Virus record (IMG/VR): IMGVR_UViG_2698536535_000005
Span: 1 to 30,107 of that record
Length of the DNA: 30,107 nt
Direction: 5' to 3' (one strand)
From: a virus
Taxonomy: Duplodnaviria > Heunggongvirae > Uroviricota > Caudoviricetes
A program made the position numbers and the translations under genes. The notes beneath the pieces were generated by a model. That model did not search any database, was not told where the DNA came from, and was given only the letters and a program-made list of their open reading frames with translations. Below are positions 1,369-19,584 of this stretch, piece after piece. The first letter of the stretch is position 1. Each line of letters opens with the position of its first letter.

Positions 1369-1444
1369 GCCGATATAGCTCAGTTGGTAGAGCAGCGCAT
1401 TCGTAATGCGAAGGTCGTAGGTTCGACTCCTATTATCGGCACCA
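1369..1444 (+). tRNA. thrW: tRNA-Thr (anticodon CGU)
   Basis: 76-nt sequence GCCGATATAGCTCAGTTGGTAGAGCAGCGCATTCGTAATGCGAAGGTCGTAGGTTCGACTCCTATTATCGGCACCA; acceptor stem GCCGATA/TATCGGC pairs, anticodon loop TTCGTAA gives CGT, encoded CCA end. Confidence 0.93.
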
Positions 1445-1610
1445 TTCTAACGTCTCCCCAAGTCTACTCAAGTATTTAAAAACTTCTTATAATCCGCATG
1501 TTATCGCCCCTTTTAGTCTTTTGACGTCTACTTAAGTACCCCAAAATCTACAGTCAATTGGGGGGACTTTTGGGGGTATTTGCTGTTCGGTTTAGTGGAG
1601 GTACCCCCAA

Positions 1611-2825
1611 GTGAAACTCAATGCCCGTCAAATAGACACTGCCAAGCCAAAAGAGAAGGCTTACAAGCTGGCTGATGGTGGTGGTCTGTATCTCCTGGTA
1701 AAACCTAGTGGAGGAAAATACTGGCGCTTTAAATATCGTGTAGCTGGTAAAGAGAAGCTGTTAGCACTAGGTGTGTATCCTGAAGTTACCTTGGCTGATG
1801 CTCGTGCAAAACGTGAAGAAGCTAAAAGGGGTATCGCTGGGGGTATCGATCCGATGGAAGCGAAACGAGAGGAAAAGATTGCCCGGGAAACGCAGTTAAA
1901 CAATACCTTCAAAGATATTGCCCTTGAGTGGCACAGCAGCAAATTAAAAAAATGGTCTGCTGGTTATGCTTCAGATATCCTCGAAGCCTTCAACAAAGAT
2001 GTGTTCCCTTACATTGGCAAAAAACCAATCGCCGAAATCAAACCACTTGAACTTCTGAATGTGCTGCGACGCATCGAGGGGCGCGGTGCTACAGAAAAAG
2101 CCAAAAAAGTGAGGCAGCGGTGCGGGGAAGTTTTCCGCTATGCAATAGTCACTGGTCGCGCAGAGTATAACCCTGCCCCAGATCTTACTAGCGCGATGCA
2201 AGGCCATGAATCTAATCATTATCCTTTCCTCACAGCCAAAGAATTGCCTGATTTTTTCAAGGCATTGTCCAGTTACTCAGGAAGTGCATTGGTTGTTATG
2301 GCGGCTCGTCTACTGATTATCACTGGTTTGCGAACTGGCGAACTGCGCGGTGCATTATGGGATGAAATCGATCTCAACAAGGCTATCTGGGAGATACCTG
2401 CTTCACGGATGAAAATGCGTCGCCCTCATGTGGTGCCTTTGTCTAAGCAGGCTCTTTCTCTTATTGGGCAGATTAAAGAATTAACTGGTAATTATCCGCT
2501 TATGTTTCCCGGCCGTAATGATCCAAGGAAAACAATGAGCGAGGCTAGCATAAACCAAGTATTTAAACGCATCGGCTATAACGGAAAGGTTACTGGTCAT
2601 GGATTCCGGCACACCATGAGCACGATTTTACATGAGCAGGGCTATAACACCGCGTGGATAGAAACGCAGCTTGCACACGTTGATAAGAACTCAATTCGTG
2701 GCACGTACAATCATGCGCAATATCTGGACGGGCGGCGCGAGATGCTCCAGTGGTACGCCGACTATATGGATTCGCTCGAACATGGCGGTAACGTGGTGCA
2801 TGGCAAGTTCGGAAAATGTGGATGA
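1611..2825 (+). CDS. int: tyrosine recombinase, P4-type integrase (N-terminal arm-binding domain plus catalytic domain)
   Basis: 404-aa ORF, GTG start; N-terminus MKLNARQIDTAKPKEKAYKLADGGGLYLLVKPSGGKYWRFKYR is the typical P4-integrase N-terminal domain; C-terminal HGFRHT and trailing tyrosine region; lies directly next to the tRNA. Confidence 0.9.
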   Translation: MKLNARQIDTAKPKEKAYKLADGGGLYLLVKPSGGKYWRFKYRVAGKEKLLALGVYPEVTLADARAKREEAKRGIAGGIDPMEAKREEKIARETQLNNTFKDIALEWHSSKLKKWSAGYASDILEAFNKDVFPYIGKKPIAEIKPLELLNVLRRIEGRGATEKAKKVRQRCGEVFRYAIVTGRAEYNPAPDLTSAMQGHESNHYPFLTAKELPDFFKALSSYSGSALVVMAARLLIITGLRTGELRGALWDEIDLNKAIWEIPASRMKMRRPHVVPLSKQALSLIGQIKELTGNYPLMFPGRNDPRKTMSEASINQVFKRIGYNGKVTGHGFRHTMSTILHEQGYNTAWIETQLAHVDKNSIRGTYNHAQYLDGRREMLQWYADYMDSLEHGGNVVHGKFGKCG

Positions 2826-2953
2826 CTGGTTGCGTATACAGTAGTAGACTTTGAGCGACGAAAGAAAAGGCTGTGTCTAGGGTCGCTCCCGAAAATCCGT
2901 ACACCTCGACGGACTGGTACAGCCACTACAGTAGAGGACGCTGAGGTGTGCGT

Positions 2954-3751
2954 ATGATTGATATTCATGCCGAATTAAACGAATACAAAAAAGATTTTAT
3001 TTCTTTACGTGAATTTCTTGAGGTCGTGCTTAAGGTCGCTGGTGATGATTATGATGTTTCAGATGTCATAACTTGGATACTCAGGAGAATAAGCGGAGAA
3101 CATATCCGCCTGTACACAGTAAATGAATTTAAGCTGTTGGAATCTTTTTGTAACCCGTATCGGGATGAATTTGATTATGATGTTCTTTATAGAAATCTGA
3201 ATGCGGTTCGGAAACGTGGTTGTTTACCTGGTGAGAGGGATGAAAATGGTTTTCTGGTGTCCGGTTATTGGGAAGATCCCGAATTTGAGAACATTGGATT
3301 TATAAGGGGTGAAATTTTCGCAATTTTTCCCGATGTCCTTGACGCGTTAACGAAGCTGGAAGGCGCTAACTCTTCTGAAAATGACGAGGCACAAGGACGC
3401 GATATTGAAAAGAAAGAGTTGCGTACAGAGGATGATTTATTATCCCAAATCGCAATGCTGGAAAAAGAAAACGCAGAGTTAAGGGCAAGGATAGAGCAGT
3501 TAGAGCAAGAGCGCCCGATACACTTATATAAATACTGGGATAAAGACCCATTAGCTAAGGCTATTGAGATTAGAAACAGAGAGTGGGCCAATTACGATCC
3601 AGAAAATGATTTTGCCACTAGGGGAAATCAAGAAGCGATAACCAGGGAGCTTAAGCAGTGGGGGGCAAGTAATGCACTTGCAACGCTCATAGAGAGGACT
3701 GCCTGCCCTATTAACCGAGACAACAGCCAAAAGAACGCAAAGCCGGATTAA
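2954..3751 (+). CDS. hypothetical protein with central coiled coil (integrase-proximal cargo gene)
   Basis: ORF with GAGG Shine-Dalgarno 7 nt upstream of the ATG at 2954 (track ORF begins at GTG 2948); AT-rich; predicted coiled coil LSQIAMLEKENAELRARIEQLEQER; no recognisable catalytic motif. Confidence 0.6.
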   Translation: MIDIHAELNEYKKDFISLREFLEVVLKVAGDDYDVSDVITWILRRISGEHIRLYTVNEFKLLESFCNPYRDEFDYDVLYRNLNAVRKRGCLPGERDENGFLVSGYWEDPEFENIGFIRGEIFAIFPDVLDALTKLEGANSSENDEAQGRDIEKKELRTEDDLLSQIAMLEKENAELRARIEQLEQERPIHLYKYWDKDPLAKAIEIRNREWANYDPENDFATRGNQEAITRELKQWGASNALATLIERTACPINRDNSQKNAKPD

Positions 3752-3766
3752 CGCACCATACCGCAT

Positions 3767-3807
3767 ACCCTGAGGGTGATTTACTGTTACCCTGAGGGTA
3801 TTTTTTT
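3767..3807 (+). terminator. putative intrinsic terminator formed by two ACCCTGAGGGT boxes followed by a T7 run
   Basis: Boxes at 3767..3777 and 3789..3799 can pair as an 11-bp stem with one central mismatch and an 11-nt loop, followed by TTTTTTT (3801..3807); sits 16 nt after the stop of the 2954..3751 gene. Confidence 0.45.
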
Positions 3808-3909
3808 ATCTTCCCCGTCAATTTTACCATCACCCTTAGGGTAGATTTCCTCCCGATTACCATCACCCTTAGGGTTAATTTCCTTCCGGTAACCATTAGG
3901 CCTGAGGGT
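3767..3909. promoter_or_regulatory. array of five palindromic ACCCTnAGGGT boxes between the integrase-proximal gene and alpA
   Basis: Boxes at 3767, 3789, 3832, 3865 and 3899; spacings 22, 43, 33 and 34 bp are close to multiples of the helical repeat. Confidence 0.5.
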
Positions 3910-3978
3910 ATGAAAATATTCGTTATTTCTGTGCCAGGATTACCTCGTCAAATTGAGTAGACGTTATGAGGTAAATAT

Positions 3979-4176
3979 ATGTCAAATACGCTTATTCGTT
4001 TAACAGAAGTTCAGCGTAGAACTGGATATAGCAAGGCATGGATTTATCGCCTTATGGGGCAAGGTAAATTTCCTGCATCAGTTAAAATTGGCTCGCGAGC
4101 TATTGCTTTCGTTGAGAGTGAAATTGACGAGTGGATTAATCAGCGTATTGCGGAATCACGCGGAACAGCTACCTGA
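3979..4176 (+). CDS. alpA: AlpA-family prophage regulatory protein (excisionase-like HTH regulator)
   Basis: 65-aa protein LIRLTEVQRRTGYSKAWIYRLMGQGKFPASVKIGSRAIAFVESEIDEWINQR, the characteristic AlpA sequence pattern; GAGG Shine-Dalgarno upstream. Confidence 0.85.
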   Translation: MSNTLIRLTEVQRRTGYSKAWIYRLMGQGKFPASVKIGSRAIAFVESEIDEWINQRIAESRGTAT

Positions 4177-4253
4177 TTAAATGGCTACGGGGCTATTTCC
4201 CCCAGCTATCCACCAGCAAATAAAAGTAACTTAATTCGATAGCAGGAGTTTTT

Positions 4254-5054
4254 ATGAAATTTCCAAAAACGCCCGTACAGGGGCGGGGCTTCGTTCGGCC
4301 TGAAAACCAGAATCTGCAAAATTTCGGCGAAATTATCCCGATTATTTCCGGCGTTATTGGCGGGAGTGAAACCACTATTGTTAGCGCCAGAGCGTTACAT
4401 AAGGCGTTAGGTGTAGGGCGCGTTTTCCGTTCGTGGATCAAGGGGCGCATTGAAGAATACGGGTTCACGGAAGGCGTGGATTATGAGGTTGTTGAATATT
4501 TGAGCCGACCCGATCCGGTGAGCGCAAAATCTCGCCAGCAAACCGCTCTTGAGTACATCATCACAGTGAACATGGCGAAAGAACTGGCGATGGTCGAACG
4601 TACCGAACAGGGCCGCGCCGTTCGCCAGTACTTTATCAAATGCGAGGAGGAGCTACACAAGGTTGCGCCTGTTCGTTCCGCAGCGTTACGCCGGGAACTG
4701 AAAGCCCGTATCACAGTTGCCAGCTACTTTAAGCCAATGTGTGCCGCGCTGGAGGCGTACCGGGCTGAACTGGGTAAAAACACACTCCAGCACCACTACA
4801 CCACGGAAGCGAACATGCTGGCGCGTATCGTACTGGGTGGCATGACTGCAAAACAGTGGGCACTGGCGAACGGCATTACAGGCGAACCACGCGACCACAT
4901 GAGCACGTTGCAGCTTGAGCACCTTTCTTACCTTGAGCAGAGCAATATCACGCTGATTGAGTTAGGCCAGGACTACCACCAGCGGAAGGCTGAATTAATT
5001 CGTCTTTCGCAGCGTTGGTTAGCCCGTCGCATGGAGGAAAACAGCCATGTGTAA
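4254..5054 (+). CDS. phage antirepressor-like protein (AntA/AntB-type N-terminal domain, KilAC-like C-terminal region)
   Basis: 266-aa ORF with AGGAG Shine-Dalgarno; N-terminal segment TIVSARALHKALGVGRVFRSWIKGRIEEYGFTEGVDYEV resembles the AntA/AntB antirepressor domain; assignment by eye only. Confidence 0.5.
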   Translation: MKFPKTPVQGRGFVRPENQNLQNFGEIIPIISGVIGGSETTIVSARALHKALGVGRVFRSWIKGRIEEYGFTEGVDYEVVEYLSRPDPVSAKSRQQTALEYIITVNMAKELAMVERTEQGRAVRQYFIKCEEELHKVAPVRSAALRRELKARITVASYFKPMCAALEAYRAELGKNTLQHHYTTEANMLARIVLGGMTAKQWALANGITGEPRDHMSTLQLEHLSYLEQSNITLIELGQDYHQRKAELIRLSQRWLARRMEENSHV

Positions 5055-5771
5055 CGCTCTGACCGTTACAAAAAGAGAAAGCGCCCCGTTGCCGGAGCGC
5101 CTTTGTGAACGAATAGCCTACTGCGCCATATTGCTTACTGTCTACGAGGCAGATTATAGCGTTGTGGTCGCACAGAGTGAAGGCGCTGATCACCGTTACT
5201 ACAGCACGCCAGAAATGCAGAATATTTTGCTGCAAAATGTCGTTGGTCACACTGTCCGGAAAGCAAAAAATTTTGCTGGTGGCGCGACTGATGCGATTTT
5301 GTCAGGTCGCCAGGTGCTGATCAATCTGATGTCTGATTTCGTTCTGGATAAAACAAAGGCGACCGCAGAGGGCCGCCAGTGGGAAAGCTACATACTTGAA
5401 CGCATCGCCAACAATGCCAGATTTGCGGCTGGTGGGCAATGTGTCAGCTTTGCACCAATGACTCTATGTTTAACTGAGGGTCATTATGGTGAATATGCTG
5501 GCTTGCTGGTGGGCTATTCCTGCTCTTTAACATTGCCATGCCGCGATGTTTTCCAGGTATGCGACCCCATTTTTGTGCGCCTGTACTCTTTAAGGAATTT
5601 CTCAAGGATAAACGCACAGGGCGCGAATCTGTTTGACTCATGCTCGTACGCTATCTTTCTGCGCTGTCTTTTCCGTGCCGGTGATGGTGTATTGGTTGAT
5701 TCTTTGTTGGTCATGGCGCAGCCCTGTAAAACGATGCACCGTAGTTCCTCACACCACGGCGCTGGTGATGG

Positions 5772-5951
5772 TTACTCCTGTTCTTTGGCCTTGCGGCGCT
5801 GGCGGTATTCAACTTCTCGCTTTAATGCTGCTGTTACAAACTGCCCTGTACTTTCACCAGGCATTTTTACCGCCTCAACATTGTTCATAACTTCATGCGG
5901 AACCCTTGCCGCAACTGTTTGTGATTTTGCGTTTACTGCTTTTGTCGCCAT
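5772..5951 (-). CDS. ribbon-helix-helix (Arc/MetJ/CopG-like) DNA-binding protein, putative repressor
   Basis: 59-aa minus-strand ORF (below the ORF-track cutoff) MATKAVNAKSQTVAARVPHEVMNNVEAVKMPGESTGQFVTAALKREVEYRQRRKAKEQE; beta-strand/helix/G-x-S/T loop/helix pattern typical of RHH proteins; AAGGGG Shine-Dalgarno 8 nt upstream; palindromic boxes in its promoter region. Confidence 0.5.
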   Translation of the reverse strand: MATKAVNAKSQTVAARVPHEVMNNVEAVKMPGESTGQFVTAALKREVEYRQRRKAKEQE

Positions 5952-5999
5952 GTTGTGTACCCCTTACAAAAAACAAATGCAGTATGCAGGAAAAAAAAT

Positions 6000-6051
6000 A
6001 AGTGTTCAACACTTGACGTGTTTAACACCTAGGCTTAAATTGGTGTTCAAC
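6000..6051. promoter_or_regulatory. three palindromic GTGTTCAACAC-type operator boxes in a divergent promoter region
   Basis: GTGTTCAACAC at 6000..6010, GTGTTTAACAC at 6016..6026, GTGTTCAACAC at 6041..6051; each is a GTGTT/AACAC inverted repeat; located between the minus-strand RHH gene and the rightward early operon. Confidence 0.45.
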
Positions 6052-6150
6052 ACCTTGTTGATGCAAGGTGCAGAAACGACAACGCCCCGCAGTGGTGGCA
6101 CACATGCAGGGCGTCTAACCACCAACGATAGCAAGAGTATCGAGGTAGCT

Positions 6151-6354
6151 ATGAGAAATCATACCACACACCCGCAAGGGCGGGACTCGCACAACCTGAA
6201 TAAATACATCTGGCGTTTTATCGCCCTGAGCACGGCACAACCGCGCGTAATTCACATCGAGGCCACCAGCGAACAGGAAGCACGCCAGCAATCTCCTGAT
6301 GGCTGCGTGATGGTATTCGCAGCCCGTATTCGCCAGGAGGTGGAACATGTGTAA
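6151..6354 (+). CDS. small hypothetical protein (likely first gene of the rightward early operon)
   Basis: Internal ATG of the 435-aa track ORF, preceded by GAGGT Shine-Dalgarno; ends in the EVEHV-stop coupling motif shared with neighbouring genes. Confidence 0.35.
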   Translation: MRNHTTHPQGRDSHNLNKYIWRFIALSTAQPRVIHIEATSEQEARQQSPDGCVMVFAARIRQEVEHV

Positions 6355-6571
6355 TGCAACATGGCCTGATGCAGCGGTAGACGCTATCAAAACGCTGATG
6401 GATTCACTTATTGAGATTTCTGCTATCGCTGGTGTGGCGCATAAACACGCAGCCAGAGAATCAGAATGCATCTCCCATTATTTAGCATTTGTGCAGCTAA
6501 AAGCCGATCAGGCACTGGATAAGGCCGGAAAAATTATCATGGCTGATGTGCAGGAGGTGCACCATGCATAA
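6347..6571 (+). CDS. small hypothetical protein, early operon
   Basis: AGGAGG Shine-Dalgarno; start overlaps the upstream stop in the CATGTGTAA coupling motif. Confidence 0.5.
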   Translation: MCNATWPDAAVDAIKTLMDSLIEISAIAGVAHKHAARESECISHYLAFVQLKADQALDKAGKIIMADVQEVHHA

Positions 6572-6929
6572 CCTGTCAATTTCTGACCTTAACAGCATTC
6601 AGTTTGACGAGAAATTTACCGGGCAGTTGCTGGTCAATGTGGAGAACGGGCGCATAGTGCGTAATTACCACCTGCCGGATGGTGCAATTGCCGGAAGCGT
6701 TGAAGCATTGCTGGAACTGGCGGAACGTGCGCGACTGATTAAGCCGTCAACGAGCCATCACGATGATGATCTGCATTTTACCGGGCGTATGGTGAGTCAC
6801 TACGAAAACGGCGTTGAAGTATCCCGCGAACGGCTGCGTGATGATTGCTGTTTCGGCACACTGCCGGAATTTATCGAGTTGCTGACCAGTTGCGGTTATC
6901 AGGTCATTCAGGGGGGTAAACATGCGTGA
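6564..6929 (+). CDS. hypothetical protein, early operon
   Basis: Start moved to the ATG preceded by CAGGAGGTG (track ORF begins at 6546); overlaps neighbours by start/stop coupling. Confidence 0.5.
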   Translation: MHNLSISDLNSIQFDEKFTGQLLVNVENGRIVRNYHLPDGAIAGSVEALLELAERARLIKPSTSHHDDDLHFTGRMVSHYENGVEVSRERLRDDCCFGTLPEFIELLTSCGYQVIQGGKHA

Positions 6930-7155
6930 TGATCGTTTTAATTCCCTGAAACGGGAATTTGATGGCGCACCGGAAGATGCAGCGGGCGCATTGTTGAGCG
7001 TTGCTGACATGATGAAAGCTGCATATTTTCTTATCAATACCAGTGGCTACAAGTCAGAGGGTGAAATGATTCTTAGTATTGCGTCGGACTATGCGGAATA
7101 TGTGGCAGAGACGCGTTACAGAAGAAAATTCACGGAGGATGTAAGCCATGCATAA
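6922..7155 (+). CDS. small hypothetical protein, early operon
   Basis: GGGGGG Shine-Dalgarno; overlapping stop/start with both neighbours. Confidence 0.45.
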   Translation: MRDDRFNSLKREFDGAPEDAAGALLSVADMMKAAYFLINTSGYKSEGEMILSIASDYAEYVAETRYRRKFTEDVSHA

Positions 7156-7348
7156 TCATGAAGCGCATGTACCCGTAGTGCTTAATGTGCCAGATGATTT
7201 CACCGGACGCGTACTGGTTTACCTGGATAAAGGGAAAGTGAAATCACAATGCCGACTGAAAAGTAATGAGATTGTTGGTTCTCCTGAATTTTTTTCTGAA
7301 CTTTGTATTCGTGCGGAAATAAAACCGGAACTGCTGACAGGAAAATAA
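7148..7348 (+). CDS. small hypothetical protein, early operon
   Basis: GGAGGA Shine-Dalgarno; overlapping start/stop with the previous gene. Confidence 0.45.
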   Translation: MHNHEAHVPVVLNVPDDFTGRVLVYLDKGKVKSQCRLKSNEIVGSPEFFSELCIRAEIKPELLTGK

Positions 7349-7352
7349 AACC

Positions 7353-7643
7353 ATGAAAAAGAAAAATTCTGGCTTTACTGCCAGCGGCCTCTCTCGGCCT
7401 GAAATCCGCCCCGGTGATATTTCCCGGGACACCAGACGCGGGGGACGGGTGGTTATTCGTCACGTTACGCCAGGCAATATCACCTACCGCCGTGAGGCTT
7501 ACGAATATGACTGCGTAATGCCGCGCCGTCAGTTTGATCGTGATTTTATTCTGGTGGAAAACAAACAACAGGCAGTGGCGAGACGTGCAGCCACGAATAT
7601 TAAAAAAATCCGGGCAATGTTGGTTGCGGGAGGTAAGAAGTGA
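7353..7643 (+). CDS. hypothetical basic protein, early operon
   Basis: 96-aa ORF beginning 5 nt after the previous stop; its stop overlaps the GTG start of the primase gene. Confidence 0.5.
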   Translation: MKKKNSGFTASGLSRPEIRPGDISRDTRRGGRVVIRHVTPGNITYRREAYEYDCVMPRRQFDRDFILVENKQQAVARRAATNIKKIRAMLVAGGKK

Positions 7644-9445
7644 AAAACGCACCGAGTCTAAAATATCAGCCGAAGGATAAATTCACTGAGGTAATCATTT
7701 TTGCCGGGACGGATGCTTACGCCCATGCTCAACACTGGATTGAAAGTGAAGGACGAAAACACGGCGATAACGTGCCTCCTGTTTACCTGGGGCCAAAGCA
7801 ACTGGCAGACCTGGCGAATATCCGCATTATTGACGAGAAACGCCGTTTTGCGCGTGTCTATATCGCGGGGGAGATAGAGCCAATCCAGATCAATACTATC
7901 GCTGAAAAGCTGGCGCTGGCTGGCGTACAGGAGGCGAAATTATACAAAGGTATCACCGACCAGGAACCGGAGAACTGGCGCGACTACCTGCAACGGATCC
8001 GCGAACAGGCTGAGCACGGGGAAGTTTCAGTGATGAAATTAGCTACAAAAAATAGTGGTCTACCCAAGCCTGCATTAAATCAGATGGGAGCCAGCCAGAG
8101 AGGGGAAGTGTTACTTGAACATTATGGAGGAGCACTGGCGATAAATGATGATTCTGATGTAGTTCACCATTACAACGGAATTGTTTGGGAGCCTGTATCT
8201 GATAAGGAACTCCAGCGGTCTATGGCGAAGATTTTTATTGATGCCGAAATTAGTTATTCGCAAAACGCCATTAAATTTGCCGTAGAGACAATGAAATTGA
8301 GTCTACCTGTTATGGGGGGAGCGGACAGAAATCTTATTGGGTTCAGTAACGGTGTTTTTGATATCAGGACAGGAAATTTTCGGGAACACAACAAAAATGA
8401 CTGGTTGTTAAATGCCAGTGAATTACCGTTCAGCCCGCCAGAAGAGGGGGAAACGCTGGCAACACATGCGCCGAATTTCTGGAAGTGGTTGCGTCGTTCG
8501 GTGGCGGATAATGCTCGTAAAGCGGATCGCGTACTGGCGGCATTATTCATGGTACTGGCGAACCGGTACGACTGGCAGTTATTCCTTGAGGTAACGGGGC
8601 CGGGCGGAAGCGGTAAAAGTGTGATGGCGGAGATTTGTACCATGCTGGCGGGTAAGGCCAACACAGTATCGGCAAGCATGAAGGCTCTGGAAGACGCAAG
8701 GGAACGCGCGTTAGTAGTTGGCTTTTCGCTGATTATCATGCCGGATATGACTCGCTACGCTGGCGATGGTGCAGGAATTAAGGCAATTACTGGCGGCGAC
8801 AAGGTGGCAATTGATCCGAAACATAAAGCCCCCTACTCCACACGTATTCCGGCAGTAGTGCTTGCGGTAAACAATAACGCCATGTCATTCAGTGACCGAA
8901 GCGGGGGGATCTCGCGTCGTAGGGTGATATTTAATTTCTCTGAGGTCGTACCGGAGAACGAACGCGATCCCATGCTGGCGGAAAAGATAGAAGGCGAACT
9001 GGCGGTAGTGATTCGCCATTTGCTAACACGATTTACCGACCAGGACGAAGCTAAAAGACTACTTTATGAGCAGCAAAAATCAGAAGAAGCGCTGTTGATA
9101 AAGCGCGAAGGTGATTCACTGGTGGACTTTTGCGGCTATCTGATGTCGTTGGTTAAATGTGAAGGAATGATGGTGGGCAATGCGGAAATAGTGCCATTTA
9201 GCCCGAGGCGATACCTGTATCATGCTTATTTAGCCTATATGTCAGCGCATGGCCTGGGAAAACCAGTATCACTGACACGCTTTGGTACTGATATGCCAGG
9301 AGCTATGGCGGAATACGGAAAGGAGTATAAGCGGGCTAAATGCACTAAAGGCCCGGATAAAGGGCGAGTGATAACAAATGTTCTGTTAGATGATGATGCT
9401 GATGGCTGGTTGCCAGCAGCTACAGGGATTAACGACAGAACATAA
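7640..9445 (+). CDS. P4-family phage/plasmid primase-helicase (C-terminal P-loop NTPase domain)
   Basis: 601-aa ORF, GTG start after GGGAGG; Walker A VTGPGGSGKS and downstream Walker-B-like hydrophobic-DM stretch; overall resemblance to P4 alpha C-terminal / pri-rep proteins of satellites; iteron array immediately downstream. Confidence 0.75.
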   Translation: MKNAPSLKYQPKDKFTEVIIFAGTDAYAHAQHWIESEGRKHGDNVPPVYLGPKQLADLANIRIIDEKRRFARVYIAGEIEPIQINTIAEKLALAGVQEAKLYKGITDQEPENWRDYLQRIREQAEHGEVSVMKLATKNSGLPKPALNQMGASQRGEVLLEHYGGALAINDDSDVVHHYNGIVWEPVSDKELQRSMAKIFIDAEISYSQNAIKFAVETMKLSLPVMGGADRNLIGFSNGVFDIRTGNFREHNKNDWLLNASELPFSPPEEGETLATHAPNFWKWLRRSVADNARKADRVLAALFMVLANRYDWQLFLEVTGPGGSGKSVMAEICTMLAGKANTVSASMKALEDARERALVVGFSLIIMPDMTRYAGDGAGIKAITGGDKVAIDPKHKAPYSTRIPAVVLAVNNNAMSFSDRSGGISRRRVIFNFSEVVPENERDPMLAEKIEGELAVVIRHLLTRFTDQDEAKRLLYEQQKSEEALLIKREGDSLVDFCGYLMSLVKCEGMMVGNAEIVPFSPRRYLYHAYLAYMSAHGLGKPVSLTRFGTDMPGAMAEYGKEYKRAKCTKGPDKGRVITNVLLDDDADGWLPAATGINDRT

Positions 9446-9472
9446 TACGAAATTTATAAGCTGAAACGTAAA

Positions 9473-9811
9473 GGTAGACGGTTGGTAGACAGATTCACTT
9501 AACCCTCTACCAACCATCTACCAATTAATATTTTGAATTATAAAGATATTTTCAATGTGGTAGAGAGGTAGACAGTTATTTCTATATTCCTAAACCACGG
9601 GGGGTATATAAAAAACAGATAGTTAAGGGGGTATTTTTTAAATTTCTCTTTTAACTGTCTACACTGTCTACCATTTAGTAAAAATCATTAATTATCAATG
9701 TATTAATGCGGTAGACCGTTGGTAGACAGTTTGCAGATTGTTTTTTTGTTATGTGTTAATAACATTAAATAAATCAATCAATTATATCGGTAGACAGTTG
9801 GTAGACAGTTG
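9473..9811. repeat. iteron array, putative replication origin of the element
   Basis: At least ten copies of GGTAGAC(AGTT) in both orientations (e.g. 9473, 9484, 9567, 9708, 9721, 9788, 9800; inverted at 9504, 9515, 9655, 9664) interspersed with AT-rich stretches, directly 3' of the primase gene. Confidence 0.7.
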
Positions 9812-9816
9812 TAACG

Positions 9817-10359
9817 ATGGGGCAAAGCATGACTAAGCTGACCATTAACAGAAAACCAAAAGGTATTTACGGCACGCCACAGAAAACGACGCAGGCGGCA
9901 CAGGAGCAGGATAAAACCACATCGGCGCATAAAGTGATGCCCGGTAACCAGAAAGCGCAGCAGAAGCCTACAGGGGCGACACCGTGGCGGCATATGACCA
10001 AACGCCAGCGCAAAAACCGCAGGCGCGTTAACCGCCTCACTGAGTTGTGGCCTGACTTATTCAGCCGGGAAGCACTGAAGCCGCTTAAGGTGGGGATATT
10101 CGACGACCTGATGCAGGATCTCGCCGTCAGGGGGCTGGCATTCGGGCCAGGGGCATTGCGTGCGACGCTGGCATCTTATGCGCAGTGTCCGCGCTATTAC
10201 CGCGCCTTAATGGCTGGTGGGGTACGCTACGACCTGAAAGGCCAGCCGTGCGGCGAGGTGACACCACAGGAACAACAGGACGCAGAAACGCGGCTGGTGG
10301 CGCTGAATGAGAAGCGCAAACGCCAGCGCCGGGCAGCAAAGGAGACAATAGGCGCATGA
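9817..10359 (+). CDS. FinO/ProQ-family RNA-binding protein
   Basis: Central region ALKPLKVGIFDDLMQDL...LRATLASYAQCPRYYRALMAGGVRYDLKGQPCGEVTPQE aligns by eye with the E. coli ProQ N-terminal FinO domain (PLKIGIF, LR.AL..Y, RY, R.DL.G.PCGE). Confidence 0.6.
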   Translation: MGQSMTKLTINRKPKGIYGTPQKTTQAAQEQDKTTSAHKVMPGNQKAQQKPTGATPWRHMTKRQRKNRRRVNRLTELWPDLFSREALKPLKVGIFDDLMQDLAVRGLAFGPGALRATLASYAQCPRYYRALMAGGVRYDLKGQPCGEVTPQEQQDAETRLVALNEKRKRQRRAAKETIGA

Positions 10360-10643
10360 TTCACGACAGCAAAGCGGAAGCACTGGAAGCGCGTGGTCTG
10401 TACCGGAGAGCGGCGGCGCGGTGGGCTGAGGTCATCATGCTGGCGAATGATGACAAGGCACGGGAACAGGCGGCAAAACGTCGCGCGGAATGTATCCACA
10501 AGGCAGCATGCCCACCAGCAAGGCAGGATAATTTCGGGGAGATGCGCGAAACCATCAGCCGGGCACATGCCGGGATGGGATTACATCAGCCCAATGGTGA
10601 GGCATTCAGGAAATACCAAAAAAAGAACAATTGTAGTCAGTAA
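10356..10643 (+). CDS. PerC-like small transcriptional regulator (tentative)
   Basis: 95-aa ORF with AAGGAG Shine-Dalgarno; N-terminus MIHDSKAEALEARGLYRRAAARWAEV resembles the PerC/Pch family N-terminal pattern as I recall it. Confidence 0.4.
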   Translation: MIHDSKAEALEARGLYRRAAARWAEVIMLANDDKAREQAAKRRAECIHKAACPPARQDNFGEMRETISRAHAGMGLHQPNGEAFRKYQKKNNCSQ

Positions 10644-10777
10644 CAGAGGATGGGATTCTCTTGGTTTTTTGTTGATGCTTTCTGAGGAAATCTACTACGT
10701 TGCTGAGCAGATGAATATTCAATTGCATCTGGGTTCCTGATAAGATTAATCTGAATATTTTCATTTGGAATAGGGAT

Positions 10778-11920
10778 ATGAATAAAACTTTAATTGCAAC
10801 ATTAGTCGGTATAGTAATGTTAACCGGATGTGGGCCAGAAGAGTTAACTCCAGAACAGAAACAGGAAGTAGCGGCTCTTAAAGCTGAACTGTCGCAAACG
10901 GAAGGTGAAATATCAGCAGCTAAGGAAGTTGACCAGCAGTTTTCTGGTGGGTTGATAAAAAATCTGACAACAGCAAGACTGGAAATATTAGGAACTAATA
11001 AAGCGCTTTTGGAACAGCGTATTAATGCTATTGAATCAGGTGCCAAAATTGATGTTGTTGTATCTGGAGTAAAACCTGATCCTGAGCTTGCGGCTTCAAT
11101 TAAAACTGAAATTGACAGCTTAGATGCAAAAATCAACGAAGCCAAAGCTGATGCTCGTCAGTATAGTGGTGGTCTGATAAAGGTACTAAAATTATCTACT
11201 GTTGCCACTGAAGAGCAGACCATGGCAATGTTGCAGCAAAAGTACCTCACAGCCAAGTATGGCCTCGCTGAAGTTAAGCTGGCATCAGTACAAGCTAATG
11301 ACGCAAAAAACAGTACTGAAACGGAAGTAACAGCCAAAAATTCCCAAGAGCAACTTCCTTTACTCCCGCCAGCGGATGGTCCGTTTGGCTTAGAAGCCGG
11401 TCTTACACAGAAAAACATCGAAGATATGATCGGTGCTAAGCTCAAGCCACTACCAGACAGTGTGAATCTGTATACTTCTGATAAATTACCGAAGCAAAAC
11501 GCAGATTTTGAAATGTATGGTTTGCTGATCTCCCCGAAAGCTGGTTTATGTCAAATACGGGCTTTAGGAAAAAATATTGATACTGATAGCTATGGATTGG
11601 CTCTTAAATCCAAGTTTGAAGAATTGAGTAATTCTTTAAGTTCTCTGTATGGAAAGGCTGATACTACAGACTTTTTGCTGGCTGGTTCAATTTGGAAAGA
11701 TCCTCAGGACTGGATGAGGGGGCTAAACAAAAAAGAACGCTTCTTATCTGCCACATGGAAGGGAACAAAAGAAATACCATTAAAAAACAATATCGATACT
11801 ATCTCTATTGAGGCCAGAGCGAACAATTCCACTCAGGGATATGTCTATCTGCAGTACTCATTTACAAATGACGAAATTTGTCAGGCAGAAATTGAAGGGG
11901 CGAAAAAAAGTTCCCTTTAA
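10778..11920 (+). CDS. lipoprotein with coiled-coil region and internal repeat
   Basis: Signal peptide MNKTLIATLVGIVMLTGC with LTGC lipobox; repeated motif QFSGGLIKNL / QYSGGLIKVL; AT-rich; intrinsic terminator directly downstream. Confidence 0.7.
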   Translation: MNKTLIATLVGIVMLTGCGPEELTPEQKQEVAALKAELSQTEGEISAAKEVDQQFSGGLIKNLTTARLEILGTNKALLEQRINAIESGAKIDVVVSGVKPDPELAASIKTEIDSLDAKINEAKADARQYSGGLIKVLKLSTVATEEQTMAMLQQKYLTAKYGLAEVKLASVQANDAKNSTETEVTAKNSQEQLPLLPPADGPFGLEAGLTQKNIEDMIGAKLKPLPDSVNLYTSDKLPKQNADFEMYGLLISPKAGLCQIRALGKNIDTDSYGLALKSKFEELSNSLSSLYGKADTTDFLLAGSIWKDPQDWMRGLNKKERFLSATWKGTKEIPLKNNIDTISIEARANNSTQGYVYLQYSFTNDEICQAEIEGAKKSSL

Positions 11921-11931
11921 ACAATCCGTGC

Positions 11932-11960
11932 AAAGCCCCTTAGTAAGGGGCTTTTATATA
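11932..11960 (+). terminator. intrinsic terminator
   Basis: Perfect inverted repeat AAAGCCCCTTA/TAAGGGGCTTT (11932..11954) followed by a T-rich tail. Confidence 0.55.
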
Positions 11961-11984
11961 TTAATGTTCAACGGGGGGGATTAG

Positions 11985-12308
11985 ATGAAAGATAATCTAG
12001 AAAAACTAATTGAAAATACTTTAAAAGATATTCTATTAGCTAATGCTGCTCTAACATTCATTTTTGCAATACCAATGGCTATTATCAGTAGGCATGGGAT
12101 GGGTATCACAATCTGGTTTATAACTGTGCTCATTGCACCTGCTCTGTGTGCAGTAGGTGCATGGCTTGTATCTCGAACATTCGGTCATGCTGAGGAGTTC
12201 TTTCATCGTCGGTGGGCTAAGCGAATCTATGTTTTTTATACTCTTGCGGCTGCCGAGTTTTTGCTTGTGTACTCAATCGCGCAAATAATGAAAAATCTGA
12301 TGAAATAA
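11985..12308 (+). CDS. small integral membrane protein
   Basis: 107-aa ORF with two or three long hydrophobic segments (ALTFIFAIPMAIIS, ITIWFITVLIAPALCAVGAWLV, IYVFYTLAAAEFLLVYSI); G-rich Shine-Dalgarno. Confidence 0.5.
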   Translation: MKDNLEKLIENTLKDILLANAALTFIFAIPMAIISRHGMGITIWFITVLIAPALCAVGAWLVSRTFGHAEEFFHRRWAKRIYVFYTLAAAEFLLVYSIAQIMKNLMK

Positions 12309-12711
12309 TTAACAAGTTATTATCATGGGGTTTGTGGCTGTTAACCTGCAGTGAGGCGACAATCGTGTATTTATAAAAACTTCCCCTTTTCACTCCCCGC
12401 TGTTTCTTCTGCTATTTCCTTTATGTTTGCATGCAGCAACATCTACCATACCTTTGCAGAAAAATCAGAGCATTTAGTGCCGAAGGTTGGTTTATTGATG
12501 CTTTTTGTTTCATTTATTGCAATTATTGTCATTCAGAAGGGATCATCATGAAAAATCACGGAGTAAAGCCAGTTTTACTTTCCCGGGGGCAGATCGAAGC
12601 CCTGTAACGTATCCAGGCCGAAAAGCGTCAGAAATCTGTGCTTGGTGTGGCACCGTCGATTCATGTTATTGCCCGGCAACTGATGGATAAGGCACTTAAA
12701 GAGGTGAGGCT

Positions 12712-12984
12712 GTGAAATTAAATATCAGTGTGGATAAACGCCAGCTATGGCAGAAAAAAGAGAACAGCGAGGCATTCAGGGCTTTGCTGGTGGAAAATCT
12801 TCGGCACCGGTTCAGTGGAGAGTTGCCTGATGCACTGGGGAAGAAACTGGAATCCCTGACGGTGGAAATTGGCGATTATGGCTTTGTTGATGTTGAAAGC
12901 ACGACTGCCAACACAGAAATCGTAAAGCAGGTCGTCAATGATGTAATGAAAACCACGCTTAGCCAGCCATCCTGGCGCAACTGA
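12712..12984 (+). CDS. hypothetical protein
   Basis: 90-aa ORF with GTG start after GAGGTGAGG; no recognisable motif. Confidence 0.35.
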   Translation: MKLNISVDKRQLWQKKENSEAFRALLVENLRHRFSGELPDALGKKLESLTVEIGDYGFVDVESTTANTEIVKQVVNDVMKTTLSQPSWRN

Positions 12985-13083
12985 ATCAGTAAGGGGCGGT
13001 TATTGCCCCTTTCCTCCATACCCACAACGCATTCCCTTTTCGCATGAAATTATTTTTTATCGTATATGCATGAGGTGAGTTAC

Positions 13084-13608
13084 ATGTTGATGAGTAAAGC
13101 CGAATACGCCAAATACAAAGGCGTAAGCCGCCAGACAGTTTACGACTGGATCGAGAAAGGCGAAGTGATCATGTCTGGCAAAAAAATTGATGTGGAGGCG
13201 ACAGAGCAGCGGAACAGCCCACCGGCACAGGGGAAAGACACCGTTTCTGAAATGTGGCCAGAAAGAACGCTGGAAATGACGTGGGGCGAGTTCTGGAAAG
13301 CAGTTAAGGCCAGAGACGGTAAAATCCCTGCGCCAGTAACGGACGACGACATACAGCAACGTGTGCTGGATGCAGCCGGGGAATTAGACTGGGAAGTGCA
13401 ATTTCTTGATGATGGCGGGATTTGGATGGATGACGGCGATGCTGAGTTTTATTTCGAGCAATATGATCTCAGGCAGAATGCCGAACTGGTGATTGGTACG
13501 CTGCGACGTGAGGTCTGTTATGTGGCTGATGCTTGTCCTGACGAGCTGGATAACTGGAGCGAAGCCGGACTAAACGCCCTGGCTGCATGGGAAAAAACAG
13601 GTCATTAA
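13084..13608 (+). CDS. HTH DNA-binding protein with acidic C-terminal domain (possible small-terminase-like or regulatory protein)
   Basis: Start taken at the ATG preceded by GAGGTGA (track ORF starts 13066); N-terminal MSKAEYAKYKGVSRQTVYDWIEKGEV is a phage-type helix-turn-helix; repeat array immediately downstream. Confidence 0.55.
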   Translation: MLMSKAEYAKYKGVSRQTVYDWIEKGEVIMSGKKIDVEATEQRNSPPAQGKDTVSEMWPERTLEMTWGEFWKAVKARDGKIPAPVTDDDIQQRVLDAAGELDWEVQFLDDGGIWMDDGDAEFYFEQYDLRQNAELVIGTLRREVCYVADACPDELDNWSEAGLNALAAWEKTGH

Positions 13609-13615
13609 CGGCCGC

Positions 13616-13821
13616 AAAAAGTGTCAAGTTGAGCAGCTTGCCAGGTTGGCACTTTACACTCTGAACACGAAAAAGTGTCAACCTCGCTGTAAACCCTGCC
13701 ATTACTGGCCTTGAGCCATATTTACCACGCCAGAAACCCGTGAAAACCGCGAAAAGTGTCAAGTTGTCATGCTTAGAAATGCCAGGGTTTTTCGCGAAAA
13801 AGTGTCAAGTGTGTCAACCTG
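13616..13821. repeat. array of AAAAGTGTCAA boxes (putative protein-binding sites)
   Basis: Five GTGTCAA cores at 13621, 13675, 13756, 13803 and 13811, most preceded by an A-run, between the HTH gene and the next small ORF. Confidence 0.6.
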
Positions 13822-13850
13822 CGATATTAAGATTTCCTAAGGTGTAAACC

Positions 13851-14045
13851 ATGACCATCACCGAAGCCGATTTGCTGGATATAGTGCGCAGCGTGGCTGG
13901 AATTAGCGAATTGCCAAAGAAAGCCAGATTTGCCGATTATGCGGACGTGGTAGCTGCTGCAATGCAGCTAGAAGATCATGCTCCGAATGAAGGAGATTTG
14001 CTGCATATCCGCATCCGATCGGCGGCGATACTGGCAGCCCGTTGA
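13851..14045 (+). CDS. small hypothetical protein
   Basis: 64-aa ORF; weak support only. Confidence 0.3.
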   Translation: MTITEADLLDIVRSVAGISELPKKARFADYADVVAAAMQLEDHAPNEGDLLHIRIRSAAILAAR

Positions 14046-14399
14046 CGCCACCAGCATAGAGAGAACGCCGTGCCTTACGAGTGGAAGAAACCGGACATGC
14101 TGCGGCGATAACCCGTTGATTAAAAGACGGCTCAAAATTGAGCCGGGTAGCAGTTTGTCTGATTTATGCGTTTAGTTGTTGATATTGCCGATGACGAAAA
14201 ATTGCACTCTGTAGCTAGTGGGCGTTTATGTTGAAAACTGCCGATTCTGATAGGCTTTTATCATGCACTTGCATGAAAACTGCTCTGTGTAGCGGGCAGG
14301 CCTGCTGGGGAGAGCATTGCGCGCTTTAGTAGCAATAAAACACATCAATAAGGCTTTTTATTTTCTTGTATTATAAAATTATACTTATTATCTTGTTGA

Positions 14400-14429
14400 T
14401 TGACAGATAAAAACAAGGGATATGCATAA
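14400..14429 (+). promoter_or_regulatory. candidate sigma70 promoter for the 14433..16852 operon
   Basis: TTGACA (14400..14405), 18-bp spacer, CATAAT (14424..14429); so close to the ATG that either the transcript is near-leaderless or another promoter is used. Confidence 0.25.
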
Positions 14430-14432
14430 TAA

Positions 14433-15122
14433 ATGAACAAATCACCTACTGAGATAATTAATATGCTAAGCGATAAGTTCAATAGTAACTTTCGTGAATG
14501 GCAGGGCATACAAGATAAAAAATTAGATAAAGTAATTATCTCAATTTTCACTCTTAACACGATTGCTGAAATTTTGAATAAAAAGAAAACATCAGTTCAT
14601 CATGATGTTTGTATTAAAATTTTTAGTGAGATTATTGCTGATACGTCATCTTCTTTATATCTTTCTGCCTGTGCCATAGATAAACCAGCTAATATTGTTC
14701 TAAGGAGAGTTTTGGAACTAGGTGTCGCATCTATTTATCTTTGGGATATGCCTCATGTTGTATATTCTTGGAAAAATCATGATGAAGACTTAAGTTTCAG
14801 TGATATGTTGAAGCATATAACAAATCAAGGCTATATAGACTACTTCACAGAAAATGAGAAGATAGGAGGGAAAGTATGTGTTATTGATATGAGAAGAGCA
14901 CAGAAAATTTATGGACAATTAAGTGATATCGTTCATGGAAAAATAACCTCATTTGAAACTGATTTGCCTAATAAGTTCACTTTTGAAAGTGAAGATTGGG
15001 AGAGGTTCATAGGTCTGGCTGAGGTTGTTTTGGGTATGATAATTAATTCCAATATTGTTCGTCATAAGATAAGAAAAGAAGTGCTATCTTCATTTCCTAA
15101 ATCTAGTGAGGTAGTTTTATAA
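14433..15122 (+). CDS. hypothetical protein, component A of candidate two-gene system
   Basis: 229-aa ORF, strongly AT-rich; stop overlaps the start of the downstream ATPase gene (TAATG); no recognisable catalytic motif. Confidence 0.7.
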   Translation: MNKSPTEIINMLSDKFNSNFREWQGIQDKKLDKVIISIFTLNTIAEILNKKKTSVHHDVCIKIFSEIIADTSSSLYLSACAIDKPANIVLRRVLELGVASIYLWDMPHVVYSWKNHDEDLSFSDMLKHITNQGYIDYFTENEKIGGKVCVIDMRRAQKIYGQLSDIVHGKITSFETDLPNKFTFESEDWERFIGLAEVVLGMIINSNIVRHKIRKEVLSSFPKSSEVVL

Positions 15123-16852
15123 TGTCTATGTTAGACACTGAGTTATTACATGCAGCACGTACCGAAGATCTTGAGTTGAAACAGGTCAAACAACTGGCTG
15201 TTCTTGGTGAGTTTGAAAAAGATGTTGTAGCAAAACTAAAAATAGCGGGCTCTCATCTGATTCAGGGTGCCAGAGGAATTGGAAAGTCTATGCTTCTAAG
15301 AGCGGCAGAAGCTGAATTAGATAGTGATTTTCCTGTTAAAAAGATTGTGGGGGTATATGTTAATTTCAAAACCAGTACTTTGCTGGAAGGGGTTAAAGCT
15401 GACAATAAAAATGCATTTCAGATATGGGTAAGCGCTAAGTTACTACAAGCTTTGTACGAAAAGTTGATATTTTTAGATGTCATTCGTGACAATAATAGCA
15501 GTGATCCATTTCAAAGAATTTTTGGGATTAAAACTATAACTGGAATGAAAGATGCTCTACAATCTAAAATTCATCTGCTTCAAAGGTTATCAAGAGATCC
15601 TTCTTCAGATAAATTGTTGAATGAAATTGGAGAGGATTTTTTAGATAAGGTTAATGATATAAGTTATGTAAATGACATCATCAAGGAGATAATTCAAGAA
15701 TACCAACTTAATAGAATTGTTTTTTTATTTGATGAGGCTGCTCATACCTTTATACCAGAACAGCAGGAAATATTCTTCGAAATATTTAAATTGCTTCATG
15801 GCGGTAAAATTGCAGTTAAGGCGGCTGTATATCCGTCAATTACATCGTATGGTAAAAATTTTGAAGTTGGTCAAGATGCCATGATGATAAACCTCGGAGG
15901 ATACGAAACTGGAAATATTGGGCGGGAACGAACACGACGTTTATATCGTGATCTATTAGATAAACGGGTCACACAAGGAGCAGCAAAAAAGAGAATATTG
16001 GCTAAAGGTGATTTGCTAGATCAATGTATTCATCTTTCATCCGGAAACCCTAGAGCATTTCTCCATTTATTTAATAAAGTATATGAGAAAGGTTATACTG
16101 AAAGAGATCTTTTAACTTGCACTCAGGATTATGTCAATCAAGAATTATTACCTTATCATTTAGGGCTTTCAAAACGATTACCTAAGTATTCTCACCATGT
16201 TCGCATTGGACTTGATATTCTTAGGGAGTGTATTATCCCTGAGCTTAGATTGAAAAATAACAGAGAGAAAAAGACTCAAACCCAATCTGCTTTTTTTGTT
16301 CTTCCTCCCGTTATTTCTCCAAATCTTAGATTGTCTCTAGATTTGCTTTGTTATTCTGGTGTTCTTTCCAAGCAAGGGTCCGTGAAGATGTCTAATCGAA
16401 AATCGGGTCAGCGCTACATGGTTAATTTATCATTACTTTTCACTGAAAAAGCATTCGTATCTAATAAGTTCGGGGAGATAATAACACTATTATCTCTCGC
16501 TGATTATAAAGAATTTGGCGCAGCAGATTCTGAATTAGAGCGTTTTTTAGAAAAATTGAAAGAATCAGCTGATGAGTGTCAAACTTGTTCCGCTGAGTTA
16601 CCTGGAGATGCGAAGTTTTGTCCTAAGTGTGGGACACCTGTACCAACAAGGTCAATTGTAGGACAACTTCTTGATGATCCGGTTAGTTGCTTGTCAATTA
16701 GTAACGCAATATGCGACCGAATAAAAGAAACCTATCCTAAAGTGGGTGATATCGTTCACTGTTCGAGGGATGATCTGAAAAAAATACCGTACATTAAAAA
16801 TGTTAGGTCAAAAATAATCAAGAACGCAGCGGATGAATATATCTCAGGCTAA
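15122..16852 (+). CDS. Orc1/Cdc6-like AAA+ ATPase with C-terminal zinc ribbon and HhH (RNA polymerase alpha-CTD-like) domain, component B
   Basis: 576-aa ORF; Walker A GARGIGKS, Walker B IVFLFDEAAH, sensor-2-like SGNPRAF; C-terminal CQTC-x11-CPKC zinc ribbon; last ~60 aa resemble the RpoA alpha-CTD; GAGG Shine-Dalgarno; terminator downstream. Confidence 0.8.
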   Translation: MSMLDTELLHAARTEDLELKQVKQLAVLGEFEKDVVAKLKIAGSHLIQGARGIGKSMLLRAAEAELDSDFPVKKIVGVYVNFKTSTLLEGVKADNKNAFQIWVSAKLLQALYEKLIFLDVIRDNNSSDPFQRIFGIKTITGMKDALQSKIHLLQRLSRDPSSDKLLNEIGEDFLDKVNDISYVNDIIKEIIQEYQLNRIVFLFDEAAHTFIPEQQEIFFEIFKLLHGGKIAVKAAVYPSITSYGKNFEVGQDAMMINLGGYETGNIGRERTRRLYRDLLDKRVTQGAAKKRILAKGDLLDQCIHLSSGNPRAFLHLFNKVYEKGYTERDLLTCTQDYVNQELLPYHLGLSKRLPKYSHHVRIGLDILRECIIPELRLKNNREKKTQTQSAFFVLPPVISPNLRLSLDLLCYSGVLSKQGSVKMSNRKSGQRYMVNLSLLFTEKAFVSNKFGEIITLLSLADYKEFGAADSELERFLEKLKESADECQTCSAELPGDAKFCPKCGTPVPTRSIVGQLLDDPVSCLSISNAICDRIKETYPKVGDIVHCSRDDLKKIPYIKNVRSKIIKNAADEYISG

Positions 16853-16859
16853 AGAAAAG

Positions 16860-16883
16860 CCCCATGTAAATGGGGTTTTTTTT
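16860..16883 (+). terminator. intrinsic terminator
   Basis: CCCCAT-GTAA-ATGGGG hairpin (6-bp stem, 4-nt loop) followed by T8, 8 nt after the ATPase stop codon. Confidence 0.8.
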
Positions 16884-16892
16884 AATATGGGT

Positions 16893-17284
16893 TTATACTT
16901 TTAATGCCCGCCAATGCATTAATTCAATTCTTTGTATTAAATAATTAGATCTATTATAAGCTCTTCTGACTTCATTTCTATCAATATGAGATAATGACGT
17001 CTCTATTGCATCTGAATTAAACCCTGCTTCATTTAAAGTTTTACTCGCAATAGAACGCATCCCATGGTAACTAGCTTTCCACCGTAACCAATTCATTTAA
17101 GAGCAGCATTAGCCGTTTGACTATTCATTGGTTGCATAGGATCGTTTCTGCTAGGGAATACATATTCTCGATGACTACTAATAGGTTTCATCACATCCAG
17201 AAATTCTAATGCCTGTGGAAATAAATGAGCAATGTGTTTCCGGTTAGCCTTCATCCGTTCGGTGGGAATTGCGGAGGGCAGCAT
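16893..17284 (-). pseudogene. integrase remnant (C-terminal part of a P4-type tyrosine recombinase, frameshifted and 5'-truncated)
   Basis: Two adjacent minus-strand ORFs (16893..17096, 17093..17284) together align with the C-terminal ~130 aa of the integrase at 1611..2825 (FPSRNDP vs FPGRNDP; HIDRNEVRRAYNRSNYL vs HVDKNSIRGTYNHAQYL); no N-terminal half is present. Confidence 0.7.
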
Positions 17285-17680
17285 AAATGCAGAGGGAAAT
17301 CTGCAAATCCTAGGCTGGCCTTGCCATAAAGCGAAGACGGCGCGGGAGCATACAAGATGATAATTATTATTAGTAACAAAGGGGAGGGCGGGTCAAATCT
17401 CTGTACCCCTAGCTGTTCTGGACCGCCTGCCTCGTCAAATTTTTACACCCGCAAAATTAAAAAAAATACTTCACGCTGGTGGTTATCCTTGGGCATCCAC
17501 TAGCCTTTCATCATTGACTGCTGGTGAGGCTGAGACTCGAAGAAAAAGAGTGCTAGAGAGTCGGTTTTTGCACAGTTTGGGGTAAGGGAAAATTTATTGG
17601 GGGTACATTTGGGGGTATATATAAAAATGCAATGTAAAAATGTCATTAAATATCAATGCGATTGTTGTTTGTGTTTTGTT

Positions 17681-17696
17681 CCTATTATCGCACCAT
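17681..17696. repeat. attR core: degenerate direct repeat of the thrW 3' end
   Basis: CCTATTATCGCACCAT matches tRNA positions 1429..1445 (CCTATTATCGGCACCAT) except for one deleted G. Confidence 0.6.
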
Positions 17697-19563: not shown

Positions 19564-19584
19564 TTTCCTTCTGTGTTGATTTGT

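Follow-up and report, generated by a model that had tools for sequence, protein, structure and literature searches.

Putative integrase arm-type sites on both arms of a thrW-inserted island and their covariation with the integrase N-terminal domain

The DNA analysed here, hereafter the window, is a stretch of 30,107 nucleotides from a Caudoviricetes record of IMG/VR (IMGVR_UViG_2698536535_000005). It starts with proA, after which comes a gene for tRNA-Thr(CGT), thrW. The 3' end of this tRNA gene is repeated further along the window and, as delimited by these two predicted att cores, an island inserted in thrW is shown to span positions ~1427-17696, approximately 16.3 kb (Table 1). The right-end core differs from the tRNA by the absence of one G (TCCTATTATCG-CACCA in place of ...CGGCACCA). 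Other thrW elements likewise end on the right in this core shortened by one base, namely L083 (32371-32387) and, at their attR, L140 and L150. This suggests that the thrW elements' own core differs from attB at this position and that strand exchange takes place to the right of it. The sequence TGTTTTGT, common to these thrW islands, precedes the right-end core.

The gene that follows the tRNA, int, encodes a tyrosine integrase with a full-length identity of 43% to P4 Int; it begins with VKLNARQ, compared with MKLNARQ in P4. Its predicted arm-binding domain (residues 3-88) matches Arm-DNA-bind_3 (PF13356/DUF4102) with an E-value of 3.6e-29. Residues 2-99 can be aligned to PDB entries 3JU0 (E = 9e-28) and 3JTZ (E = 3e-21). 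We take 3JU0 and 3JTZ/3RMP to be the arm-binding domain structures of the HPI and HAI7 integrases of Szwagierczak et al. 2009. The nearest phage relatives of the protein are IntS-type integrases, at ~49% identity. Elsewhere, the island carries genes for AlpA-family, AntA-domain, D5-type primase, ProQ/FinO and PerC proteins. By analogy with P4 Vis, the AlpA-family protein may serve as recombination directionality factor and as regulator. Another E. coli strain has an identical int region, and there an Icd-like gene is annotated in the same block.

Several further features of the island were recorded. The Rfam int-alpA RNA motif (RF02996; gathering score 35.8) is matched just 3' of int (2870-2937, plus strand) with 45.5 bits. 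The region upstream of alpA-like, at 3766-3889, has tandem repeats of 17 nt (3766/3788) and 33 nt (3824/3857), each of which contains the palindrome CCCTnAGGG; they look like operators. Between the primase and proQ-like genes (9473-9811), about 12 GGTAGAC repeats in both orientations look like the iterons of a replication origin. Three CCGCAAAAAGTGTCAAGTTG-like copies are found within 200 bp at 13612-13810, 3' of a 180-aa HTH-like ORF. The low-GC (~35%) gene pair at 14433-16852 (plus strand) encodes a 229-aa protein that matches no family, and an ORC/Cdc6-like AAA ATPase of 576 aa with a zinc ribbon at its C-terminus. This pair is possibly defence cargo; its sole PADLOC match is marginal (E = 0.009). 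Just inside the right end of the island, at 16893-17284 (minus strand), lie two short ORFs that are similar to parts of the catalytic domain of tyrosine recombinases. They are the remnant of a broken integrase, and the region is annotated as a pseudogene in strain SCU-316.

Table 1. Features of the island and of its predicted recombination sites, in window coordinates.
Feature	Position	Strand	Remarks
tRNA-Thr(CGT), thrW	1369-1444	+	ARAGORN, Rfam tRNA
attL core	~1427-1444	+	thrW 3' end; repeated at 17680-17696
Extra inverted partial copy, doubtful as site	1537-1545	-	reads TTTGGGGTA, one mismatch, four G
P'1 arm-type site (putative), degenerate here	1558-1566	+	TTGGGGGGA; relatives have TTGGGGGTA
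P'2 arm-type site (putative)	1570-1578	+	TTGGGGGTA exact, 12 bp after P'1
Shine-Dalgarno-like GGAGG of int	1597-1601	+	between P'2 and P'3; within predicted P'2:P'3 hairpin
P'3 arm-type site (putative), inverted	1602-1610	-	plus strand TACCCCCAA, exact reverse complement of TTGGGGGTA
int, P4-family tyrosine integrase, 404 aa, GTG start	1611-2825	+	Pfam Arm-DNA-bind_3, Phage_int_M, Phage_integrase
Codons of Int residues 29, 50, 53	1695-1697, 1758-1760, 1767-1769	+	diagnostic positions, N-terminal domain
AlpA-family helix-turn-helix protein	3979-4176	+	Pfam Phage_AlpA, E = 2.4e-19
Extra partial P-arm copy, doubtful as site	17576-17584	+	TTTGGGGTA, one mismatch
P1 arm-type site (putative)	17597-17605	+	TTGGGGGTA exact; first half of 12-bp tandem pair
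P2 arm-type site (putative)	17609-17617	+	TTGGGGGTA exact; 62 bp left of attR core
attR core, right end of island	17680-17696	+	thrW 3'-end copy minus one G: TCCTATTATCG-CACCAT

The first-pass annotation of the window had described copies of a G-rich repeat, direct at 1558 and 1570 and inverted at 1537 and 1602, between the tRNA and the integrase start, and had proposed them as candidate arm-type binding sites of the integrase. Direct reading of the sequence confirms all four copies, their orientations and their location between tRNA-Thr(CGT) and int. It also bears out that the last copy abuts the start codon: GGAGG, P'3 and the GTG at 1611 follow one another without a gap. The recurrence of the motif near the other end of the element, likewise claimed, holds as well, since three plus-strand copies occupy 17576-17617 beside the right-end core. 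The P' sites (1558-1610) lie 114-166 bp to the right of the attL core and the far cluster 63-104 bp to the left of the attR core, with P1 and P2 themselves 63-83 bp from it. The P and the P' arms, on either side of the recombination core, therefore share one repeat motif.

The copies are not all equally good. In P'1, the single mismatch falls on the T that defines the motif variant (GGA for GTA), and it is at this base that the site departs from that of a 99%-identical relative (L002). The copy at 1537-1544 has only four C on the plus strand (TACCCCAA) and is shared with just the closest relatives (L002, L008, L010, L012, L013); elsewhere a TTGAAATCTAC element occupies its place. Likewise, nothing corresponds to the copy at 17576-17584 in the P arms of P4, L083, L106, L140 or L150. 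A pattern search of the whole window returned four exact copies of TTGGGGGTA (1570, 1602 on the minus strand, 17597 and 17609), compared with 0.15 expected from simulation. With up to one mismatch allowed, 12 were found where 4.3-4.6 are expected. When a cluster was defined as at least three such matches within 80 bp, the window contained two; among 1000 first-order Markov simulations, one cluster arose once and two clusters never. This excess of copies and the absence of paired clusters from the simulations mean that chance does not explain the repeats. Four lone copies with one mismatch (13019, 15347, 18684 and 20084) do not rise above chance level and were discarded. A copy inside int, CTGGGGGTA at 1837-1845, was rejected as an arm site because its position differs from that of the internal P4 repeat (3632-3621); it is taken as coding sequence since it encodes a conserved GGI.

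As a check, the first-pass annotation had proposed a motif search in homologous elements. We used 80 loci from Enterobacterales, with one genome scanned per species and integrases 61-99% identical to that of the window. Six tRNA targets are represented: tRNA-Thr, two tRNA-Arg species, tRNA-Gly, tRNA-SeC and tRNA-Ser. Most of these 80 att regions contain the motif, with copies near -53, -41 and -9 relative to the start codon of int, and the distance from tRNA to int is usually ~165 bp. In 52 distinct relatives, the copy near -9, the counterpart of P'3, separates the Shine-Dalgarno sequence from the start codon. When 51 non-redundant upstream regions were aligned, the arm copies were among the most conserved segments of the attL arm, together with an RTCTAC repeat and the TTGAAATCTAC element. 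Site logos indicate that the constrained core is GGGGG[T/C]A, and the predicted recognised core of the arm sites in this island is GGGGGTA.

The RTCTAC repeats are as well conserved as the arm sites. They lie between the core and the arm sites, at 1451-1467, 1515-1531 and 1545-1551 in the window and at the same positions in L002-L081, with GTCAAC/ATCAAC replacing them in the GCA thrW clade. These repeats are candidate sites for the AlpA-family factor or a host factor. The hexamer of the GGTAGAC iterons is the reverse complement of the P'-arm GTCTAC; a link between the two was considered and rejected, as islands L083 and L084 have no such iteron cluster.

The repeats closely resemble those of satellite phage P4. 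Six "attP arm sequence repeats" are annotated in the P4 GenBank record (NC_001609), and five of them share the layout of the window. Read in the direction of int, the P arm of P4 has two contiguous 12-nt repeats, cagtGGGGGCAc and aaaaGGGGGCAt (4174-4151), followed at ~55 bp by the 20-bp core. The P' arm has two further contiguous 12-nt repeats, cattGGGGGCAt and aattGGGGGCAt, ~113-115 bp from the core; these are the counterparts of P'1 (3965-3954) and P'2 (3953-3942). The inverted P4 repeat atgTGCCCCCAA (3926-3915) touches the ATG of MKLNARQ, just as P'3 touches the GTG of VKLNARQ. With the exception of the sixth P4 repeat, which is located inside int, the two systems are alike in repeat number, orientation, 12-bp spacing, distance to the core and the run of five G. 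The only difference in the motif is T versus C (GGGGGTA in the window, GGGGGCA in P4), and Int residue 50 is Leu in the window and Arg in P4. On the basis of the shared number, orientation, spacing and core distance, together with the homologous integrases, we regard the window repeats as counterparts of the P4 arm repeats.

In other respects the elements differ. P4 uses its own attachment site, with a core sequence different from that of thrW, and the ~16-kb island of the window has the D5-type primase, ProQ, PerC and AntA genes and no P4 sid/psu/delta set. A promoter-like TTGAAA-18-CATAAT in P4 is not kept in the window. This kind of repeat has been known since the P4 att site was sequenced (Pierson & Kahn 1987), and the island is a further member. 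A full-text literature search with the motif strings returned only primers and unrelated sequences.

The two arms change in concert. In distant relatives, all copies switch together to another variant (GGGGGCA, TGTATAG, GGGGGCC or GGGGTGT) and the layout is kept. Both ends were recovered for nine further elements, with a tRNA-anchored fuzzy search among the means of locating attR. Scans of viral contigs covered 240 loci, few of them with both ends, because most islands are longer than the 10-kb flank. In all ten elements with both ends, including the window, the far arm shows the element's own variant as a 12-bp tandem pair placed ~55-81 bp from the core. This applies to the GTA type (the window, the thrW elements L106, L140 and L150/L248, and L224 at another tRNA), the GCA type (P4 and L083) and the TGTATAG type (the tRNA-Gly islands L084 and L182). 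Control windows of 130 bp within the same islands gave 0-0.09 matches. L083, from E. coli SW4848, is a P4-like satellite in thrW with psu-like and delta-like genes and a TOPRIM primase; it carries retron St85 as cargo (29762-31649).

The motif variant is also linked to the sequence of the integrase. Only three of the 404 alignment positions, residues 29, 50 and 53, fully separate GTA from GCA elements: they are L/L/[LIV] in the former (n = 39) and [EQ]/R/F in the latter (n = 24). Residue 50 is Leu with GGGGGTA, Arg with GGGGGCA, Met with TGTATAG and others, and Lys with GGGGGC(C/T). Across 73 elements, these N-domain residues track the variant without exception. On an N-domain tree built without residues 29, 50 and 53, the motif changes 8 times, compared with at least 17 times on a tree of residues 100-400 and ~36 times when labels are shuffled. 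The motif therefore travels with the N-terminal domain, whereas it follows neither the catalytic part nor the tRNA target. Co-inheritance is likely to have a share in the association, as the N-domain coding region is within 150 bp of the P' sites. Recognition is also favored, given that there are only three diagnostic positions and that the far arm matches.

On the combined sequence evidence, the repeats are very probably arm-type binding sites of the island's P4-family integrase. The earlier proposal to this effect is supported by the Arm-DNA-bind_3 domain, the layout on both arms, the match to P4, the conservation among relatives and the co-variation with the N-domain. [quoted passage not shown] Once the island is excised as a circle, a single core would have one arm on each side (attP). 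By bridging arm and core sites together with DNA-bending host factors and the AlpA-family protein, Int would form an integrating or excising complex. These steps are modelled on the known working of the heterobivalent tyrosine integrases of lambda, KplE1 and P4 (PMC2951348, PMC8138268).

Other explanations of the repeats account for less of the evidence. That they are chance G-runs or the functionless remnant of slippage has next to no probability. Two of the seven copies (1537-1545 and 17576-17584) are indeed imperfect and not conserved, but the excess of exact copies, the two clusters, and the retention of position, spacing and orientation across dozens of genera in which the flanks have diverged are incompatible with this; for the five main copies it is refuted. 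Binding of the repeats by another protein instead of Int, for example a host factor or the AlpA-family directionality factor, is also very improbable. The island does encode an AlpA-family protein, and in KplE1 repeated attL sites are bound by the directionality factor TorI as well (PMC2951348). However, the variant follows the Int N-domain residues and tree, and the layout is that of P4 repeats annotated as attP arm repeats. For accessory proteins, the RTCTAC family between core and arm sites is the more natural candidate.

A further reading places the function of P'2 and P'3 mainly in RNA. In the int leader, the two copies would pair into a hairpin around the ribosome-binding site that extends to the start codon and limits translation or stabilizes the transcript; DNA binding may coexist. 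Positions 1566-1640 can be folded into a 9-bp G-C-rich stem extended over GGAGG (-21.6 kcal/mol), and the inverted copy is maintained ahead of the start codon in the 52 relatives mentioned above. In addition, P4 int is reported to be under post-transcriptional control as well, with Vis binding its mRNA (PMC2951348). We nevertheless consider this reading unlikely. The fold is ordinary for its composition (z = -1.0), with 34 of 200 shuffled sequences folding equally well or better. Beyond the 7-nt core, the flanks of P'2 and P'3 are often non-complementary (two flanking positions differ in 23 and 21 of the 52 relatives), which indicates selection on each copy and not on their pairing. A Xenorhabdus tRNA-Ser clade (L053-L056) has the cluster, but none of its copies abuts the start codon. 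Finally, the hairpin leaves unexplained both P'1 and the tandem pair of the same variant 16 kb away, found in 10/10 complete elements. A translational role may exist besides DNA binding, but it cannot be the main explanation.

If the repeats are Int arm sites, their position raises the possibility of autoregulation, as the first-pass annotation had suggested. Integrases with a promoter overlapping attL are generally self-repressed, and Int supplied in trans has been reported to lower its own promoter for intS, intC, intL and intF (PMC2951348). P4 Int represses Pint by direct DNA binding (Piazzolla 2006, as cited in PMC2951348), and PMC7286903, which also states that P4 Int represses Pint, shows self-repression for the integrase of PAI I536. 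Among 75 distinct relatives, 27, including P4, have the element TTGAAA-18 nt-(C/T)A(T/C)A(A/T)T, which resembles a promoter and is located -71 to -41 upstream of int (L011, L019-L034, P4 and others). Its -10 element falls on the P'1/P'2 junction, which is consistent with repression by site occupancy. With P'1 and P'2 at the place of this element and P'3 separating the ribosome-binding site from the start codon, Int bound to these sites would lower its own expression. In the window and its closest thrW clade, however, the element is degenerate (1541-1570; CCAAAA...GACTTT in the window), and a simple scan of the plus strand over 1300-1700 found no sigma-70-like site. For this island we can only infer self-repression by analogy, since the promoter-like element is degenerate and P'1 is mutated. 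Read-through into int from thrW is possible.

Comparable arrangements have been described in other integrases. In KplE1/HK620 (Panis et al. 2010, PMC2951348), int is likewise adjacent to a tRNA gene, attL overlaps the int regulatory region, and Int and the directionality factor repress int. Binding and repression were demonstrated experimentally in that system, whereas our assignments are drawn from sequence. The IntS arm sites also have another consensus, with a conserved TAAA, and differ in number and layout (PMC2951348). Lambda Int follows the same heterobivalent principle, in which arm sites on either side of the core govern the architecture of recombination and its direction (Ross & Landy 1982, as cited in PMC2951348). 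Its arm-binding domain is of a different family from that of the window, which belongs to DUF4102/PF13356 in the P4 cluster of the IntSXT subgroup (PMC8138268). The motif, number and spacing of the sites also differ, and lambda int is not transcribed from within attL. The integrases of the HPI and HAI7 genomic islands share the arm-binding domain family (Szwagierczak et al. 2009, as cited in PMC8138268), a likeness that concerns protein structures from the integrases of other islands. The PAI I536 integrase of uropathogenic E. coli (Chitto et al. [quoted passage not shown] K-12 IntF was considered as an experimentally tested close relative and dismissed, as its similarity is weak and local (36% over 53 residues). 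The arm motif was not found upstream of K-12 IntF.

The residue-motif correspondence and the repeated exchange of an arm-recognition module are the only results here that may be new. We tentatively propose, with rather less than even confidence, that arm-site specificity across P4-family integrases is a small swappable code, in which the N-domain and the sites of both arms have been repeatedly exchanged while the catalytic domain and the tRNA target were kept. The strict link between three residues and the motif provides a specificity rule that can be put to the test in a very common family of integrases. If it is both true and new, arm sites would be predictable from integrase sequence. If true, it could also give tandem islands that share one tRNA a means of keeping their recombination complexes apart. 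More generally, the predictable positions of the arm sites (-53/-41/-9, and a tandem pair ~55-81 bp from the far core) could guide annotation pipelines and allow the far end of tRNA-linked islands and satellites to be found. For the window itself, the limits of the island (thrW to 17696) are fixed and the parts of its recombination module are identified.

The sequence to the right of the island appears to be a second, different island in tandem (17697-30107). The sequence from 17680 on directly adjoins thrW in hundreds of E. coli genomes, and the assignment follows from this adjacency of 17680-17800. At 20085-20223, this second island contains five 23-24-nt units with the palindrome ACAGAAnnnCTGT, at a spacing of 23-25 bp.
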